A stretch of 64,000 nt of DNA from Fibrobacteria bacterium (GCA_025360005.1 JANYDA010000057.1:15065-79064), one strand, 5' to 3'. Numbered from the stretch's first letter, positions 20,095 through 47,585 are shown. Notes: a model not told the origin generated them from the sequence alone. Translations and numbers: made by a program.

Positions 20095-21810
20095 ATGGGC
20101 GCATGGGACCGGGCCCCCGGGCCCCACCGTCCTTCCGTGCATCCCACCGCGGGCGGAACCCGCAAGGGATGGGACAGGGTAACCGCGCCGCTACTGGGCT
20201 GGGCCGCGTTCGCGGCCGTTTATTTCCTCCTCGCCTTCCGGCCCGGCATCGTCCGTAGCGACGATTTCGGCTATCTCCGCAGCGTCATCGGGACTTTGCG
20301 CGCGGGCCGCCCGTTCCTGGATGATTGGCTGGAGCCGTTCAGCGCGGTGTTTTCCTCGGCCTGCGCGCTGCTCTACCGGCTTACCGGCAGTTTTCTCCTT
20401 TCCACCTGGGGCTTCCAGGCGGCCTGCGCGCTGGCGCTGTATCCGTTGCTGTACCGCCTCTTGGCCGTACGCCTGCAACCCCGGCACGCGGCCCTATCGG
20501 CGTTGGCCATGGCCGGTTTACCCTTGTATCTGGCCAAGGCGGCCGATTTCCACGCGGGCATCTGCACCTTGGATCTGTTTCTGGCCTCGTTGATCCTTTT
20601 CGAGACGGATCGGATGGGCTGGTTCTATGCGGCGGCGTTCCTGGCTTTCGCCAATCGCCAGAACCAGATTTGCCTGCTGATCCTGCCCGCGTGGAAATGG
20701 TTCTTCCCCATGCCGGCCGGCAAGTCCCGGCGCCGGACCGCGGATGTTGTCGCGCCGTGCCTATACGCGTTGGCGGCCCTGGCGCTGACGCTGGCCATGA
20801 ACGGAACCTATGCCGCGCGGAACGCGGGATTCCGGCATAGCGCGCCGGGGCCGCTGCTGGCCGCCTTCGCCTCCGCGGCCATCGCCGGCGGCCTGCTGAG
20901 CTTGGGCTGGCTTTCCGCCTTCTCTTTTCTCCGCGGCCGCCCGGGTCCGCTCGCAAACGCGCGGTGGCGGTTTCCGGCCGCGGCAAGCCTGGCGGTGCTG
21001 GCTTTTCTTCCCTGGTGGGATCCATCGCTGCTGCGGATGGATACTCCCATGTTCGGCTATCTGGGCTGGTCCCGGGTCAATTTTGCCTTGCCCTGGATCT
21101 TGATTGCTTCTTACTGGCTGCTCGATTTCCGGCTTTTGCGCCCCAGGCCCTACCTGGCCCTGATCGGGGGTTACGTGCTGGTTACCTCGCTGCGGGGGAT
21201 CTGGTGGGACTATTATTTCCTGGAAATCGCGTTGCTCTGCCTGCTCCTGGCCTTGCAAGGCCCCGGGATTTCCGGCATGGATCTGCCCGGGCCCGCCCTC
21301 GTGTTCCTGGGCGCGTTGCTGGCGGCCGATATCGGTTATGCCTATCTCCTCAAGGTGCAATCCGATAAGCAGCGGCTGGCCGTGGTAATCCTGGAAGGCC
21401 TGGAACGCCAAGACCGCGTGCGCGTGGATCGCATGACGGGGGCCCCCTTCGGGTTGCTGGGATGGAAGCTGTTCGGTTATTTCACCTCCCACGAAGGCCG
21501 CGACTACGGGGAGTTGGCGGACTTCCTGGGTTATGTGCGCAAGGACAGGGTGACGGTGGAAACCCAGTTGCCATGGCGGCGGGCCTTCAAGTCCGCATTG
21601 CCCGCGCAAGCGGTGATGATCGACAGCGGTTTCTGCCGGGTGGGGTTTGCCAGCGTCCGTTACCGGGTGGCGGATTTGCATGGACCGGATTCCGGCGTCC
21701 AGGCGCAGGGACGCTTTCTGGTTTTGGATTCCGCCCGCTATCGTCCCCTGCGTTTCCCGTTGGACGATGGGGAGTGGAAGGAATACCTGGATGTTCCGGG
21801 CCGCAGGTAA
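20095..21810 (+). CDS. GT-C-like polytopic membrane protein, tandem paralog 1
   Basis: Start chosen at 20095. First-loop motif GIVRSDDFGYLRSV, ~10 TM, conserved C-terminal soluble domain (VDRMTGAPFGLLGWKLF...ETQLPWRRAFK) shared with the downstream paralog. Confidence 0.55.
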   Translation: MGAWDRAPGPHRPSVHPTAGGTRKGWDRVTAPLLGWAAFAAVYFLLAFRPGIVRSDDFGYLRSVIGTLRAGRPFLDDWLEPFSAVFSSACALLYRLTGSFLLSTWGFQAACALALYPLLYRLLAVRLQPRHAALSALAMAGLPLYLAKAADFHAGICTLDLFLASLILFETDRMGWFYAAAFLAFANRQNQICLLILPAWKWFFPMPAGKSRRRTADVVAPCLYALAALALTLAMNGTYAARNAGFRHSAPGPLLAAFASAAIAGGLLSLGWLSAFSFLRGRPGPLANARWRFPAAASLAVLAFLPWWDPSLLRMDTPMFGYLGWSRVNFALPWILIASYWLLDFRLLRPRPYLALIGGYVLVTSLRGIWWDYYFLEIALLCLLLALQGPGISGMDLPGPALVFLGALLAADIGYAYLLKVQSDKQRLAVVILEGLERQDRVRVDRMTGAPFGLLGWKLFGYFTSHEGRDYGELADFLGYVRKDRVTVETQLPWRRAFKSALPAQAVMIDSGFCRVGFASVRYRVADLHGPDSGVQAQGRFLVLDSARYRPLRFPLDDGEWKEYLDVPGRR

Positions 21811-21811
21811 C

Positions 21812-23539
21812 ATGCGCAAGACGTATGCCTTTCCGCTGTGGCCCGTGCTGGGATTCTGCGCCTATTCCCTGCTGTACTTCCCCTTGCTGTACCATCCCGG
21901 ACTGGTCCGCCTGGATGACTTCGGATATTTGCAAAGCGTGGCGGAAACCCTGGTCCGGCATCGCCCCTTCACGCACGATTCGCTGGAGCCGTACGGCGCC
22001 ACCATGTCCGTGCTGGGAGCTTTGATCTATGCGGTCACGGGCGATTTCCCTTTCGCCACCTGGGGCCTGCAAGCGTTGTTCGCGGGCGCGAATTTCTTCC
22101 TCCTATACGCGTTGATCCGGCCGAGGCTGGGTCCGCGCGGCGCGTCCCTGTCCGCGCTTTTGCTGGCGACCCAGCCCATCTACTGGTACAAGTGCGCAGA
22201 GTACACCGGCAACGTTTTCACCATGGCGTTCGTACTGGCGGCGCTGTTGGCCTACCGGCGCGGCCGCTGGGGCTGGTTCTTCCCCCTGGTTTTCCTGGCC
22301 TTCGCCAACCGCCAGAACAGCGTGGCCATGCTGGCGCTACCGGCCTTCCAGCTGGCGTTTGATCGAACCATGCCCGCATCCGTTAAGGCCCGGTTATGGA
22401 TCGGCGTGGCCGCGTTCGTCGCGGCCGGCCTTGGCCTGCATGCCATCATGAACCATACCGTGGCTCAAGCCCAGAACATCTATGCGGTTCTGGACGCGCG
22501 CAAATGCCTGCTCATCGTCCGCGCCGGGTTCATCGGCTTATGCCTGGGCCTGGCCTGGCTTTCCTGCCTGGGTTTGCTGCTGGGGAAAAACGCCTTGGCC
22601 AACCTGCGCGCCAACCTTTCGCGTCCCTGGCTGCCGCTGGCCGCCACCTGCGGCTTTCTGGCGCTGTTGCTGCCTTCCTCGCTGCCCCATTTGCGATCGC
22701 ATCCCTATGTGGAGTTCTGCGCCCCTTTGCTATTGGACTTGGACGCGCGCATCCATTTGCAATGGTTCCTGGCCGCGTTGGTTCCCGGCCTGCTATGGGC
22801 GCTGGACTGGCGCGCCGCCTCGCGGCCCACCCCGGCCATGGCTTTGTTCCTGGGCTATGTGGCCGTAAGCGGTCTCAGGGCGTTCTGGTACGATTTCTAT
22901 CTCATCGATCTGGCCCTGGCCGCATTGTTCCTGCTGCTGGAGGACGGAGGCGCGCTGCGGCCCGTCCGGATCGCGCCGCTGCTGGCGGGGTTCATCCTGC
23001 TTGCGCATATCGCCTGGGGCTACGGCTTCAAGATCCTGGCGGACAAGGAAATGCTTTCCTTGCGTTCCTATGAAGGCATGGAAAGGGATCGCGGCTTGCC
23101 GGTGGATCGCATGACGGGAGCGCCCTGGGGGTACCTGGGATGGAAACTCTACGATCATCTCGTTTCCCATTCGGATACGGATGCGCGCAAGAGTTTCGGC
23201 TGCTATATGCTGGCCGACCAGGTGGTGGTGGAAACGCAGTTGCCCTGGAGGCGGAGCTATAAGCGGAGCGTGTTGCCGCCGCAGGCCCTTATCCTGGAAG
23301 CGGGGAAGACGCCCATCGGCGGATTTCCGGTGCCGTATCGCGTCCTGGATTTGAGGAGGGCGGGGTCGCCGCCGGGGGATCCGGCATGTTACCTTTCCCT
23401 GGAAGGCGCGCAATATCGCAGCAAACCTTTCCCCCTCGATGCCGCGGAATGGTCCGCCTATATCCGGGAGCGGCGCCGGAATTACGGGTCCGGGACCGGC
23501 ACCGGTGCCTCCCTCCCACGGCCCGCAAGTCCCTTCTGA
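21812..23539 (+). CDS. GT-C-like polytopic membrane protein, tandem paralog 2
   Basis: Start chosen at MRKTYAFPLW, 1 nt after the paralog-1 stop. GLVRLDDFGYLQSV motif and C-terminal VDRMTGAPWGYLGWKLY...ETQLPWRRSYK are co-linear with paralog 1. Confidence 0.55.
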   Translation: MRKTYAFPLWPVLGFCAYSLLYFPLLYHPGLVRLDDFGYLQSVAETLVRHRPFTHDSLEPYGATMSVLGALIYAVTGDFPFATWGLQALFAGANFFLLYALIRPRLGPRGASLSALLLATQPIYWYKCAEYTGNVFTMAFVLAALLAYRRGRWGWFFPLVFLAFANRQNSVAMLALPAFQLAFDRTMPASVKARLWIGVAAFVAAGLGLHAIMNHTVAQAQNIYAVLDARKCLLIVRAGFIGLCLGLAWLSCLGLLLGKNALANLRANLSRPWLPLAATCGFLALLLPSSLPHLRSHPYVEFCAPLLLDLDARIHLQWFLAALVPGLLWALDWRAASRPTPAMALFLGYVAVSGLRAFWYDFYLIDLALAALFLLLEDGGALRPVRIAPLLAGFILLAHIAWGYGFKILADKEMLSLRSYEGMERDRGLPVDRMTGAPWGYLGWKLYDHLVSHSDTDARKSFGCYMLADQVVVETQLPWRRSYKRSVLPPQALILEAGKTPIGGFPVPYRVLDLRRAGSPPGDPACYLSLEGAQYRSKPFPLDAAEWSAYIRERRRNYGSGTGTGASLPRPASPF

Positions 23540-23633
23540 TGCCTTTCGGAAGCATTTCGGGGCCGGGTTTTTAGCTATTGGGACTTAGCAGCGGGGTTGG
23601 CCGGGATGATCCGCCGCTTCCGTCCGCGTCCGG

Positions 23634-23664
23634 TTGACAACCCCCGGGGTAGCGGAGTTACATT
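23634..23664 (+). promoter_or_regulatory. Candidate sigma70-like promoter (TTGACA-N19-TACATT) for the cimA leader
   Basis: TTGACA at 23634–23639 and TACATT at 23659–23664; the predicted TSS would fall at or next to the leader-peptide ATG (leaderless leader peptide). Confidence 0.3.
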
Positions 23665-23671
23665 GGGGAAC

Positions 23672-23737
23672 ATGAACCGCCGGTATGCCATCCTGATTAT
23701 TCGAATTAGCATCGGAGCATCGAGCGGACTTTTGTAG
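23672..23737 (+). CDS. Ile-rich leader peptide (MNRRYAILIIRISIGASSGLL) of a putative attenuator
   Basis: 21-codon ORF with 5 Ile and 1 Leu within 9 codons (AILIIRISI), ending 22 nt before a strong intrinsic terminator just upstream of citramalate synthase. Confidence 0.5.
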   Translation: MNRRYAILIIRISIGASSGLL

Positions 23738-23758
23738 GCGTCCACCTACTGCCATTGG

Positions 23759-23792
23759 CAAAGCCCGCTCCCAGGAGCGGGCTTTTTTTTTG
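23759..23792 (+). terminator. Rho-independent terminator (attenuator terminator) upstream of cimA
   Basis: aaAGCCCGCTCCcaGGAGCGGGCTTTTTTTTT: 10-bp GC stem plus 9-T run, with the cimA ATG about 27 nt downstream. Confidence 0.7.
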
Positions 23793-23818
23793 CCTTGCCG
23801 GGCCGAGAAAGGTCGAAG

Positions 23819-25393
23819 ATGAAACAGGTTAAGATATACGATACCACCCTGCGGGACGGGAACCAGGCCAAGGGCCTCTCCTTTTCCCTGGAGGACAAGA
23901 TTGCCGTGGCGCGCAAGCTGGATCAGTTCGGAGTGGACTACATCGAAGGCGGCTGGCCCAATCCCACCAACCCGCTGGACATCGAATTCTTCGCGCGCGC
24001 CCAGCGCATGGAATGGCGCCATGCCAGGATCGCCGCCTTCGGCAGCACCTGCCGCCCCAAAGGCAATCCCGCCAACGACATGATCCTCAAGCACCTGGTG
24101 GACACCAAGGCGCCCGTCATCACCATATTCGGCAAGAGCTGGGACCTCCATGTAACGGAGGTGTTACGTACCACCCTGGAAGAGAACCTGCGGATGATCC
24201 GGGAATCCGTGGCCTTCCTCAAGCAACATGCGCAGGAAGTGGTGTACGATGCGGAGCATTTCTTCGACGGCTACCAGGGCAATCCCGAATATGCGACCCT
24301 GGCGCTGGAAGCGGCCCGGGACGGCGGCGCGGACGTGATCGTGCTGTGCGATACCAACGGCGGGCAATTGCCATGGCGCGTGGAGGAACTGACGGCCAAG
24401 ATGAAAGCCCACCTGGGCCGGCCAATCGGCATCCATGCCCATAACGATACCGGCACCGGCGTGGTCAACGCGCTGGCTTCCGTGCGCGCCGGCGCCGTGC
24501 AGGTGCAAGGCACCATCAACGGCTACGGCGAGCGTTGCGGGAATGCCAACCTCACCGTCATCATCCCGGCCTTGCAGCTGAAGATGGGCATCCCCGTGGT
24601 AGGCGAGGATCAGCTCAAGGGGCTGCGCGGACTGAGCCTGGCCGTAAGCGAGATCGCCAACCTGGCCGACGATATCCGCCAGCCTTATGTGGGTGAGGCC
24701 GCTTTCGCGCACAAGGGCGGGGCCCATATCGATGGCGTCATGAAAATCGCCCGCAGCTTCGAGCATATCGATCCGTCTTTGGTCGGCAACGCCCGCGACT
24801 TCATCGTGTCCAATCAGAGCGGCAGCAGTCTGGTGTGGGACAAGATCAACGCCATCGTCCCCGATCTGGACAAGCGCGGCCCCCAGGTGGCGGCCATCCT
24901 GGCGGACGTGAAGCAGAAGGAGGACGAGGGGTACCATTTCGAAATCGCCGACGCCAGTTTCCAACTTCTCGCGCGCCGCAAGCTGGGTATGTGGCAGGAT
25001 CGCTTCGAGTTCCTGGGCTTTCGTTCCATCGAGGAGCGCCGCGAGAACGGAGAGGTCTATTCGGAATTCACCATCAAGCTCAAGGTGGGGGAAGAGGTTG
25101 AGCATACCGCCGCGGAAGGCAACGGTCCCGTGGACGCCATGAACGCGGCCACCTGGAAGGCCCTGCGCCGCTTCTTCCCGGCCTTGGCCAACATCGGGGT
25201 CATCGACTACAAGGTGCGCGTGCTGGACAACAACAAGGGCACCGGCGCTAAAGTGCGGGTGTGGATCCGCTTCCATGATCGCACCCGGCCGGAGCAGGAA
25301 CCCTGGGGCACACTGGGCGTATCCACCAACATCATCGAAGCCTCCTGGCTCGCGCTTCTGGATGGAATCAACTACAAACTCCTGCAAGGATGA
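23819..25393 (+). CDS. cimA: (R)-citramalate synthase / 2-isopropylmalate synthase family (CimA-like, with LeuA-type C-terminal regulatory domain)
   Basis: Start chosen at MKQVKIYDTTLRDGNQ; HxH metal site GIHAHNDTGTGV; ~525 aa with C-terminal LeuA_dimer-like domain characteristic of CimA. Confidence 0.8.
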   Translation: MKQVKIYDTTLRDGNQAKGLSFSLEDKIAVARKLDQFGVDYIEGGWPNPTNPLDIEFFARAQRMEWRHARIAAFGSTCRPKGNPANDMILKHLVDTKAPVITIFGKSWDLHVTEVLRTTLEENLRMIRESVAFLKQHAQEVVYDAEHFFDGYQGNPEYATLALEAARDGGADVIVLCDTNGGQLPWRVEELTAKMKAHLGRPIGIHAHNDTGTGVVNALASVRAGAVQVQGTINGYGERCGNANLTVIIPALQLKMGIPVVGEDQLKGLRGLSLAVSEIANLADDIRQPYVGEAAFAHKGGAHIDGVMKIARSFEHIDPSLVGNARDFIVSNQSGSSLVWDKINAIVPDLDKRGPQVAAILADVKQKEDEGYHFEIADASFQLLARRKLGMWQDRFEFLGFRSIEERRENGEVYSEFTIKLKVGEEVEHTAAEGNGPVDAMNAATWKALRRFFPALANIGVIDYKVRVLDNNKGTGAKVRVWIRFHDRTRPEQEPWGTLGVSTNIIEASWLALLDGINYKLLQG

Positions 25394-25400
25394 GGTAACG

Positions 25401-26252
25401 ATGGACTCGACTAAACAAACCGGTAATCCCATAGCGCCGACTGCGCCCATCGCCCCGCTTTCTCCGTCGGCTCCGCTGCCGCCGCCCGGGCGGGATGCAT
25501 TCGCCATGCCGCAAACCTGGAATCCGGATCGCTATATCGCCAATGCCCGCTTCGTCGCGGAGCTGGGGATGGGGGTGGTGGAGTTGCTGGCGCCCGTGGC
25601 GGGCGAACGCATTCTGGATGTGGGTTGCGGGGACGGCTTCCTCACCGCCAAGCTGGCTGCCATGGGCTGCAAGGTGATGGGTATCGACGCCAGCTCGGCG
25701 CAGGTGGACGCAGCCCGCAAATCGGGCTTGGACGCCCGCGTGGTGGATGCGGAAACTATGGCCTTTACGGAAGATTTCGATGCGGTATTCAGCAATGCCA
25801 CCTTGCATTGGATGCGCAAGCCCGACGCCGCCATCGACGGGGTATGGCGCGCCCTCAAGCCCGGAGGCCGTTTCGTGGGCGAGTGCGGCGGCGCGGGTTG
25901 CGTGGCGGAGATCCGCGCCGCGCTTGGACGCGCGCTGGCCAAACGCGGGCAGGACTTCGATGCCCTGAACCCCTGGTACTTCGCCACTGCCGAAGAATAC
26001 GGGGCCAAGCTGGCTGCCCGCGGATTCAAGGTGGAAAGCATCCTGGTCTTTCCGCGGCCCACGCCTTTGCCCGGGGAAATGCGGGCTTGGCTGGAAACCT
26101 TCGCCGAGAATTTCATGAAAGGCATCCGGCCGGAAGAGCGCGCCGCATTCCTAACCGAAGTCCAGGAGGACCTGCGTCCAGTCTTGTGCGATGCGGAGGG
26201 CCAGTGGAGCGCGGACTATACGCGCCTGCGCTTCCGGGCCGTCAAACCTTAG
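25401..26252 (+). CDS. Class I SAM-dependent methyltransferase (Tam/trans-aconitate MT-like)
   Basis: Start chosen at MDSTKQ; motif I ILDVGCGDGFLTAKL; NATLHWM. Confidence 0.75.
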   Translation: MDSTKQTGNPIAPTAPIAPLSPSAPLPPPGRDAFAMPQTWNPDRYIANARFVAELGMGVVELLAPVAGERILDVGCGDGFLTAKLAAMGCKVMGIDASSAQVDAARKSGLDARVVDAETMAFTEDFDAVFSNATLHWMRKPDAAIDGVWRALKPGGRFVGECGGAGCVAEIRAALGRALAKRGQDFDALNPWYFATAEEYGAKLAARGFKVESILVFPRPTPLPGEMRAWLETFAENFMKGIRPEERAAFLTEVQEDLRPVLCDAEGQWSADYTRLRFRAVKP

Positions 26253-26286
26253 TTTATAGGCCGCATTTGCTAACTTTGTCCGCATC

Positions 26287-27576
26287 ATGAAGACATCCCA
26301 GCCCATGCGCATTGTCCGCGTTTCCAGCCTCAAGCACCCGGATGTCCGGGCCATCACCTCCCGCGAGCCCAGCCCTTCCCCGGAAATCACCAAAGCGGTC
26401 AAGGACATCCTGGCGGACGTGAAAAGCATCGGCCATGCGGCGGCCCTGGGGTACGCGCGCAAGTTCGACGGCCTCCAGGGTAACCTGGCGGTTTCGGCGG
26501 GGGAGCTGGACAAGAAGGCGCGAGGCCTGGATCCGCAGGTGAAAAAAGCCATCAAGGGCGCTATCGCCAACGTACGCCGGTTCCATCAGCGCCAGGCCGA
26601 GAAATCCTGGCGGTTCACGGGGCCGGACGGCGAGACCCTGGGCCAGATCATCCGCCCGCTCAAGCGCGTAGGCCTTTACGTTCCCGGCGGCGCCGGCGTC
26701 TATCCCTCCACCCTGATCATGAACGCGGTCCCGGCGCGCGTGGCCGGCGTCAGGGAAATCGCCGTGGTCACGCCCGCCGCCAAAGGCTTGCATCCCGCCA
26801 TCGCTTTCGCCGCCCGCGAGCTGGGCATCACCGAGGTCTACCGCATCGGCGGGGCCCAAGCGGTGGCCATGCTCGCTTTCGGGACCAAAAAAGTGCCCCG
26901 GGTCGACAAGATAGTGGGGCCGGGTAACGTCTATGCTACCCTGGCCAAGAAGGAAGTCTTCGGCACGGTGGACATCGATATGATCGCCGGCCCATCCGAG
27001 ATCCTGGTGCTGGCCGATGAAACCGCCGACCCGGACTGGGTCGCAGCCGATCTCCTGTCCCAGGCGGAACACGGCTCCGGCTATGAAGCCGCCATCTGCA
27101 TCACCACATCCGCCAAGGCGGCCGCCTGGATCGCGGACTGCGTGGCCCAGCAAGTGGAGGCTTCGCCCAAACGCGCAGTCCTGGAAAAGAGCCTGTCCCG
27201 TTTCGGCCGCATCTACCTGGTTCCGGACTGGAAGTTCGGCTGCGCCCTGGCGGATGCCATCGCCCCGGAACACATGGAAATCCTCACCGCCAGGCCGGAG
27301 GCCCTTTCCGCGCGCATCCGCAATGCCGGCGCTATTTTCCTGGGCGCTTATTCATCGGAACCCGTCGGCGATTACTTCGCGGGTCCCAACCACGTGCTGC
27401 CCACCAACGGTTCCGCGCGTTTCTTCTCGCCGCTGGGAACCTACGATTTCTACAAGCGCACCAGCCTCATCAACTATACCCCTAAGGCCCTCAGGAAACA
27501 CGGAGCCCTGATAGCCGCCTTGGCTGACGCCGAAGGCTTCCACCACCACGCCCAGGCCGTCCGCAAACGACTCTAG
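26287..27576 (+). CDS. hisD: Histidinol dehydrogenase
   Basis: 429 aa with HisD signatures ([22 protein letters not shown]...[15 protein letters not shown]...QAEHG). Confidence 0.95.
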
Positions 27577-47507: not shown

Positions 47508-47585
47508 CGGGGCGTAGCTCAGTCTGGCTAGAGCATCAGCTTTGGGAGCTGAGGGTCGTTGGTTCGAATCCAGTCGCCCCGACCA
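47508..47585 (+). tRNA. tRNA-Pro (anticodon TGG), CCA encoded
   Basis: Cloverleaf read manually: 7-bp acceptor stem CGGGGCG/CGCCCCG, U8A9, D-arm GCTC...GAGC, anticodon stem CAGCT/AGCTG with loop TTTGGGA (TGG), T-arm GGTTCGAATCC, discriminator A, CCA. Confidence 0.9.

Follow-up and report, generated by a model that had tools for sequence, protein, structure and literature searches.

The stretch of DNA analysed here, referred to below as the window, is 64,000 nt (64 kb) long, has a G+C content of 60.8% and comes from an uncultured Fibrobacterota bacterium; GH5 and GH26 glycoside hydrolases are among the proteins it encodes. It contains a gene for (R)-citramalate synthase, cimA, the product of which was found through an exact homologue look-up to be 100% identical to a 524 aa database protein, and which starts at an ATG (position 23819) preceded by a GAAAGG ribosome-binding site. 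The best match to CimA in a genome scan was to a Fibrobacteres MAG, at 88% identity, followed by matches to Fibrobacter and Chitinispirillales at 54-58% identity. The citramalate route is the threonine-independent path to isoleucine, and the role of CimA is specific to this amino acid. Immediately upstream of cimA lie a promoter-like element, a short open reading frame rich in isoleucine codons and a strong intrinsic terminator, the coordinates of which are collected in Table 1.

Table 1. Features at the cimA locus and in its putative leader region, in window coordinates
Feature	Position	Strand	Remarks
Upstream gene	21647-23539	+	Same strand as cimA
-35-like hexamer TTGACA	23634..23639	+	With a 19-nt spacer in the window, L001, L081, L085, L092 and L093
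-10-like hexamer TACATT	23659..23664	+	7 nt before leader ATG
Putative leader peptide ORF, 21 codons + TAG, MNRRYAILIIRISIGASSGLL	23672..23737	+	Homologous ORFs in 12 relatives
Possible region 1, CCGCCGGU	23677..23684	+	Can pair with AUCG-A-GCGG (23719-23727)
Putative regulatory codon cluster I-L-I-I-R-I-S-I (ATC CTG ATT ATT CGA ATT AGC ATC)	23690..23713	+	
Core ATT-CGA-ATT, minor codons	23699..23707	+	Nearly invariant
Region 2, predicted antiterminator 5' strand, GAGCGGACUUU	23722..23732	+	Ends 3 nt before stop codon
Small hairpin GUAGG/CCUAC	23734..23749	+	Overlaps stop codon, within antiterminator loop
Region 3, terminator 5' arm, AAAGCCCGCUC	23760..23770	+	Pairs with region 2 or region 4
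Region 4, terminator 3' arm, GAGCGGGCUUU, and T9 tract (23783-23791)	23775..23791	+	
cimA, (R)-citramalate synthase, 524 aa	23819..25393	+	Predicted regulated gene; TIGR00977 670 bits, cutoff 450

A first-pass annotation of this DNA had proposed a 21-codon, isoleucine-rich leader ORF in front of cimA. Such an ORF is present, running from an ATG at 23672 to a TAG at 23735-23737, and codons 7-14 contain the claimed five isoleucine codons and one leucine codon. When all six frames of the 64 kb were searched (approximately 128,000 windows), the resulting ILIIRISI sequence was the sole eight-codon window with at least five isoleucines. The cluster is not an effect of base composition.

Loci from related bacteria were gathered through a genome scan, exact-protein look-ups of homologues 63-90% identical to CimA and one metagenome pattern scan, giving a family of 13 leaders (the window, L001, L081, L083-L087, L089 and L090-L093). 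It had been suggested that conservation of the mini-ORF in relatives would be informative, and in the 12 relatives, the CimA proteins of which are approximately 63-90% identical to that of the window, ORF, antiterminator and terminator are all retained in front of cimA. All four matches from the metagenome pattern scan likewise lay directly upstream of cimA. The leader ORFs are 18-43 codons long and have two to eight isoleucine codons each, with several relatives having merely two or three, and share a conserved L-I-(I)-R-I motif; their N-termini vary in both sequence and length, with a promoter-proximal ATG being kept in the frame of the isoleucine codons throughout. Isoleucine accounts for 55 of the 328 codons in the 13 leaders (16.8%), against 4.9% in the genes of the window, whilst valine and leucine represent 1.5% and 11.9% of leader codons respectively. 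Hence the signal appears to be isoleucine itself, rather than the branched-chain amino acids generally, which matches the isoleucine-specific enzymatic role of CimA.

Not all members of the clade carry the element. In L082 (1330-1500), where CimA is 80% identical and the neighbourhood differs, and in L088 (1452-1500), where CimA is 65% identical and cimA lies 50 nt after ilvE in a leuB-ilvE-cimA-hisD cluster, there is neither leader nor terminator, implying that the attenuator was lost, or never gained, in some Fibrobacterota lineages. When nhmmer profiles of the Fibrobacterota leaders, and of the cores of the Verrucomicrobiota and Fibrobacterota, were run against the window and the approximately 80 other loci, no more copies came to light.

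The TTGACA-N19-TACATT element that had been described upstream of the leader is also present, with 7 nt separating it from the ATG. A promoter scan limited to spacers of 16-18 nt did not report it, and a spacer of 19 nt is unusually long. All 13 leaders have a TAnnnT hexamer 6-8 nt ahead of the ATG, in the context of two promoter subtypes: one with TTGACA, the 19-nt spacer and TACATT or TATATT, the other with a TGn-type extended -10. The position of the -10-like hexamer implies a leaderless, or nearly leaderless, transcript, and there is no conserved Shine-Dalgarno sequence before the leader ATG. The earlier idea of a leaderless leader peptide is thus supported by the same spacing recurring in both promoter subtypes, as would be expected of a leaderless sensory ORF. 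Its predicted translation is indicated indirectly, by the hexamer, by a frame kept in spite of N-terminal indels and by the fixed place of the stop codon.

The terminator begins 22 nt after the leader stop codon, as had been noted, and consists of AAAGCCCGCTC (23760-23770), a CCAG loop and GAGCGGGCTTT (23775-23785), overlapping a run of nine T residues at 23783-23791. A terminator scan described the stem as 11 pairs, seven of them G-C, around a 4-nt loop. The '10-bp GC stem' of the first-pass annotation therefore holds as a terminator but not in its composition, which is an 8-bp G/C core with three A-U pairs. With a folding energy of -23.6 kcal/mol and its T9 tract, this is the strongest canonical intrinsic terminator in the window. 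Such structures are scarce over the 64 kb, the runner-up being found on the minus strand around 39845 (-20.4).

At the end of the ORF, 10 of the 11 bases of region 2 are the same as in the terminator 3' arm. The pairing previously claimed between GAGCGG (23722-23727) and CCGCTC therefore exists, and extends to 10 of 11 positions when GAGCGGACUUU is set against AAAGCCCGCUC. Whether this allows mutually exclusive folds was a check proposed alongside the original observation, and was approached through constrained folding, in which 30 nt were masked around the ribosomal A site and the nascent RNA extended as far as 23776. For each of the first four isoleucine codons, when placed in the A site, the RNA folds into an antiterminator composed of regions 2 and 3, at approximately -21 kcal/mol, which encloses two small hairpins; with the A site on the fifth (23711), this structure is one pair shorter (-17.8 kcal/mol). 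A ribosome that has the TAG in its A site masks region 2, which makes the antiterminator impossible and leaves the terminator with no competitor. In these folds a ribosome on the isoleucine codons thus leaves the antiterminator strand free, and one at the stop codon hides it, as in classical attenuation. The free full-length leader RNA folds into the terminator, which is its thermodynamic ground state, hence any read-through must be kinetic.

One of the small hairpins, GUAGG/CCUAC, has apparent counterparts by eye in relatives (AAAGG/CCUUU, GGGAC/GUCCC and AGGGA/UCCCU). A pairing of CCGCCGGU with AUCG-A-GCGG, of the kind that could form the 1:2 anti-antiterminator or pause hairpin of the textbook model, is seen in the minimum free energy fold (-11.1 kcal/mol). 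However, it does not stand out from dinucleotide shuffles in the window (p = 0.08), and in the relatives the position and strength of the partner vary, with significance reached in L083 only. If translation begins without a leader, the switch may have just two states.

The spacing of these parts is conserved across the 13 leaders. Region 2 follows the AUU codon of the nearly invariant core at a distance of 15-23 nt (mode 17), counted from the first base of that codon to the start of region 2. The leading edge of a ribosome lies approximately 12 nt beyond the A-site codon, according to the established footprint size, and region 2 therefore begins just past the leading edge of a ribosome that has this AUU in its A site. 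At the other end, region 2 comprises the last 11-14 nt of the ORF, finishing at most 3 nt from the stop codon in 12 of the 13 sequences. The stop codon and the T-run are separated by 47-50 nt in ten leaders and by 51, 53 and 57 nt in the others, whilst the sequence occupying this interval is itself not conserved. The best partner within the ORF for the terminator 5' arm is found at the ORF 3' end in 12 of the 13 cases; in L086 it lies 12 nt ahead of the stop codon. Nine sequences were compared with dinucleotide shuffles: the p value of this best pairing was 0.004-0.16 in seven of them, and the pairing was not significant in the other two, L086 and L089.

In an alignment of the 13 sequences, the helix between regions 2 and 3 is 93% paired, falling to 30-54% when the partner is slid by one to three columns, whilst the terminator is conserved in all 13, also 93% paired and almost invariant; these counts reflect conservation more than independent covariation, given that the leaders are relatives of one another and that the window supplied the structure. 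Shuffling the columns of the antiterminator reached the observed value in 0-1 of 500 trials for four of five measures, and in 37 of 500 for the remaining one, further pair types. One clean compensatory change is seen, in L087, where GAGCGG/CCGCUC has become CAGCGG/CCGCUG.

Leaders resembling these are also found upstream of cimA in other phyla. An Acidobacteriota locus (L060:2825-2975) has a TACATT hexamer followed after 5 nt by an ATG, from which the peptide MNKTMAQHTRPYINIAIIISSGASPGG, with an INIAIII run, could be translated; its region 2 straddles the stop codon, a strong terminator comes next and the CGA-ATT core is lacking. Apart from the core, L060 has the design of the window leader, and its constrained folds behave alike. 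In Verrucomicrobiota, short ORFs precede cimA at L015:2776-2860, L027:2775-2860, L028:2776-2860, L034:2767-2850 and L052:1740-1830, examples of the predicted peptides being MGNRPDIRLTTRISFGLIRA and MPSTSLQIIRIISGLLSA. All five have in common with the Fibrobacterota leader a CGA-ATT-A core followed by GG[AG]CTC. In the Verrucomicrobiota the GG[AG]CUC sequence forms the 5' arm of a hairpin, CGG[AG]CUC...GAGUCCG, which encloses the stop codon, represents the sole conserved structure and is followed by a U-tract in three of the five; no convincing switch could be derived from the architecture of these five loci. A different conserved frame, ...GI(C/G)PDFHIPRQIP(E/K)LH, occurs approximately 200 nt before cimA in two further Verrucomicrobiota loci, L053 (around 480-560) and L062 (around 2790-2850). 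T-boxes often control genes of the leuA/cimA family in Bacillota, hence it was unexpected that none, nor any other Rfam family, was detected at the gathering threshold in the four Bacillota cimA loci scanned (L040, L055, L075 and L079, 7.5 kb each).

We consider it highly probable that the element upstream of the Fibrobacterota cimA is a ribosome-mediated, isoleucine-responsive transcription attenuator with a leaderless sensor ORF, the parts, complementarity, geometry and conservation of which emerge from sequence analysis, and the direction and specificity of response of which we infer. Transcription would start at the leader ATG or no more than a few bases away, and a 70S ribosome would translate the 21-codon leader as RNA polymerase proceeds. 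When isoleucyl-tRNA is scarce, the ribosome would be expected to stall within I-L-I-I-R-I-S-I with its leading edge just short of GAGCGGACUUU; this strand, being free, could pair with the terminator 5' arm once that had been made, such that no terminator would form and the polymerase would enter cimA. When isoleucyl-tRNA is plentiful, the ribosome would reach the TAG that abuts region 2 and cover it, allowing the terminator to form and ending transcription 27 nt before cimA. Weighing against this reading are the small number of isoleucine codons in several relatives, the long promoter spacer, the two clade members with no leader, the stability of the terminator in the full-length RNA and a 1:2 hairpin that does no better than shuffles.

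One aspect of the leader goes beyond this scheme. An in-frame CGA-ATT is found in 12 of the 13 Fibrobacterota leaders, and the full ATT-CGA-ATT in 11, as well as CGA-ATT in the five Verrucomicrobiota leaders, yet in this genome CGA accounts for 9% of arginine codons and ATT for 20% of isoleucine codons. Isoleucine sensing alone is no explanation for such nucleotide-level conservation of minor codons, which may stem from a codon pair that is slow by design, from a signal at the RNA or DNA level, or from shared ancestry. A speculative version of the first, which we think rather unlikely to be correct, is that CGA-AUU acts as a brake on decoding: with CGA in the P site, read by inosine through an I:A wobble, the AUU in the A site would be decoded more slowly, so that a single AUU would become a hypersensitive sensor of isoleucyl-tRNA. 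Were this true, the cimA leader would represent an ancient cross-phylum family with a tuned stalling codon pair, rather than a plain run of codons.

The same core could instead suggest a riboswitch-like or protein-binding attenuator, in which the invariant AUUCGAAUUA would be the ligand or protein sensor of the same switch and the ORF would be incidental. Besides the retention of minor codons across two phyla, this would account for the eight-base palindrome formed by ATTCGAAT and for the otherwise poor conservation of the peptide flanking the core. However, the core is not embedded in any conserved higher-order structure, a UYCG...CGRA hairpin discernible by eye in some sequences being absent from others, and there is no Rfam match. 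The in-frame isoleucine codons around the core vary in number and position whilst the cluster is kept, the ATG keeps both its place by the promoter and its frame as the N-terminus changes in length, and the stop codon holds a fixed position next to region 2. The Acidobacteriota analogue has an isoleucine run without the core. Overall, we regard this alternative as improbable.

Slightly less probable still is that the region constitutes an independent small gene, encoding a small RNA or micro-protein on a transcript of approximately 115 nt, with cimA being expressed through constitutive read-through or from elsewhere and the isoleucine richness having no sensing role. A promoter, short transcript and strong terminator would equally be the anatomy of a small RNA gene, and an attenuator RNA that has been terminated can also function in trans, rnTrpL in Sinorhizobium being an example (PMC6614838). 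Yet the T-run is 27 nt from the cimA ATG, too short a distance for cimA to have a promoter of its own there; the element is invariably found immediately before cimA, irrespective of the preceding gene; and the conserved antiterminator and stop codon geometry would be needless in a free-standing small RNA.

The gene preceding the leader is an ilvE-like aminotransferase in L083, L084, L085 and L087, and an unrelated gene in the window, L081 and L086. This variety indicates that the element travels with cimA, and not with its upstream neighbour. That the terminator instead ends the upstream gene, which is on the same strand and has no other terminator between it and cimA, or insulates cimA, with the mini-ORF as a chance feature, seems hardly credible and is, on the comparative sequence data, already contradicted, since the terminator lies 220 nt past the stop of that gene with a conserved promoter-like element between, leader and terminator are kept in relatives with entirely different upstream genes, and no second such isoleucine cluster exists in the 64 kb.

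The only ilvE-like class IV aminotransferase gene in the window lies at 10692-11711, 12 kb from the leader, and glycosyltransferase and membrane protein genes occupy the intervening 12667-23539, which suggests an insertion or rearrangement between the ilvE-like gene and the cimA leader. No second attenuator was found upstream of the ilvE-like gene at 10692, that space being filled by a minus-strand ORF. On the other side of cimA, a class I methyltransferase gene (25401-26252) starts 7 nt after it and is followed 34 nt later by hisD (26287-27576), a gene order, cimA-(methyltransferase)-hisD, that is found again in L081, L086 and L088. No terminator was detected between cimA, the methyltransferase gene and hisD (25401-27576); a gene of the histidine pathway would then be under the control of an isoleucine attenuator.

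The proposed attenuator would work in the same way as the enterobacterial ilvGMEDA, ilvBN, thr and leu leaders, in which regulatory codons are clustered, antiterminator and terminator are mutually exclusive and the position of the ribosome is the signal; no report was found of leaders of this type controlling cimA. The relationship is not evident through Rfam, as the Leu_leader (RF00512) and Thr_leader (RF00506) models scored 24.6 and 19.7 bits, against gathering thresholds of 50 and 55, with the terminator stem alone being aligned. Scans of the leader, the whole window and 11 related loci identified no leader family at the gathering threshold, most of the below-threshold matches of the leader being to its terminator stem, and the sole match at that threshold anywhere scanned was tRNA-Pro at 47508-47585. 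Nor was any T-box found in 23400-23950, at E-values of up to 10, or in the fetched loci.

Among described systems, the Corynebacterium glutamicum ilvBNC attenuator is the most similar in style. It too has a short ORF of branched-chain amino acid codons (IlvL, MTIIRLVVVTARRLP) with an antiterminator and terminator before a biosynthesis gene, and the ORF is described as being translated without a ribosome-binding site, from a transcript starting one nucleotide before the start codon (PMC11857589, citing Morbach 2000). It differs in belonging to an actinomycetote, targeting ilvBNC, having mixed isoleucine, valine and leucine codons and responding to valine. The cimA leader, in contrast, is almost purely an isoleucine leader, with a stop codon that abuts the antiterminator strand, and no sequence relationship between the two could be detected. 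The leaderless short ORFs of mycobacteria with polycysteine tracts (Canestrari et al., 10.1101/834739) are similar in having codons for the end product, at which a stalled ribosome remodels the downstream RNA, but they sense cysteine and act on translation, whereas the output of the cimA leader would be a canonical terminator. In Bacillota, genes of the leuA/cimA family are preceded by T-boxes, with COG0119 being listed as under such control (PMC12452182); as proposed for the cimA leader, the balance of uncharged and charged tRNA governs a terminator, but through direct binding of the tRNA, with no need of translation.

The original suggestion that isoleucine attenuation of cimA outside the proteobacteria was undescribed accords with a limited search of the literature and Rfam, in which no prior report was found; more generally, no description of a leader peptide or attenuator for citramalate synthase was found in Rfam or in a limited search of full-text literature. 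The mechanism is textbook; of interest are the target gene, the phyla, the fixed geometry and the CGA-AUU core shared across phyla. Its signature of a promoter-proximal ATG, an isoleucine cluster and a stop codon bordering a sequence that repeats the terminator arm could be used in metagenome searches, and the cimA leader itself represents a compact and testable candidate for an isoleucine-responsive switch. If the interpretation is correct, this would be the first described control of the citramalate route by isoleucine at the level of the gene, no earlier report having been found. To our knowledge, almost no cis-regulatory RNA has been annotated in either the Fibrobacterota or the Acidobacteriota. 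Classical leader peptide attenuation in a leaderless form would, on this interpretation, operate in the former phylum, and probably also in the latter.
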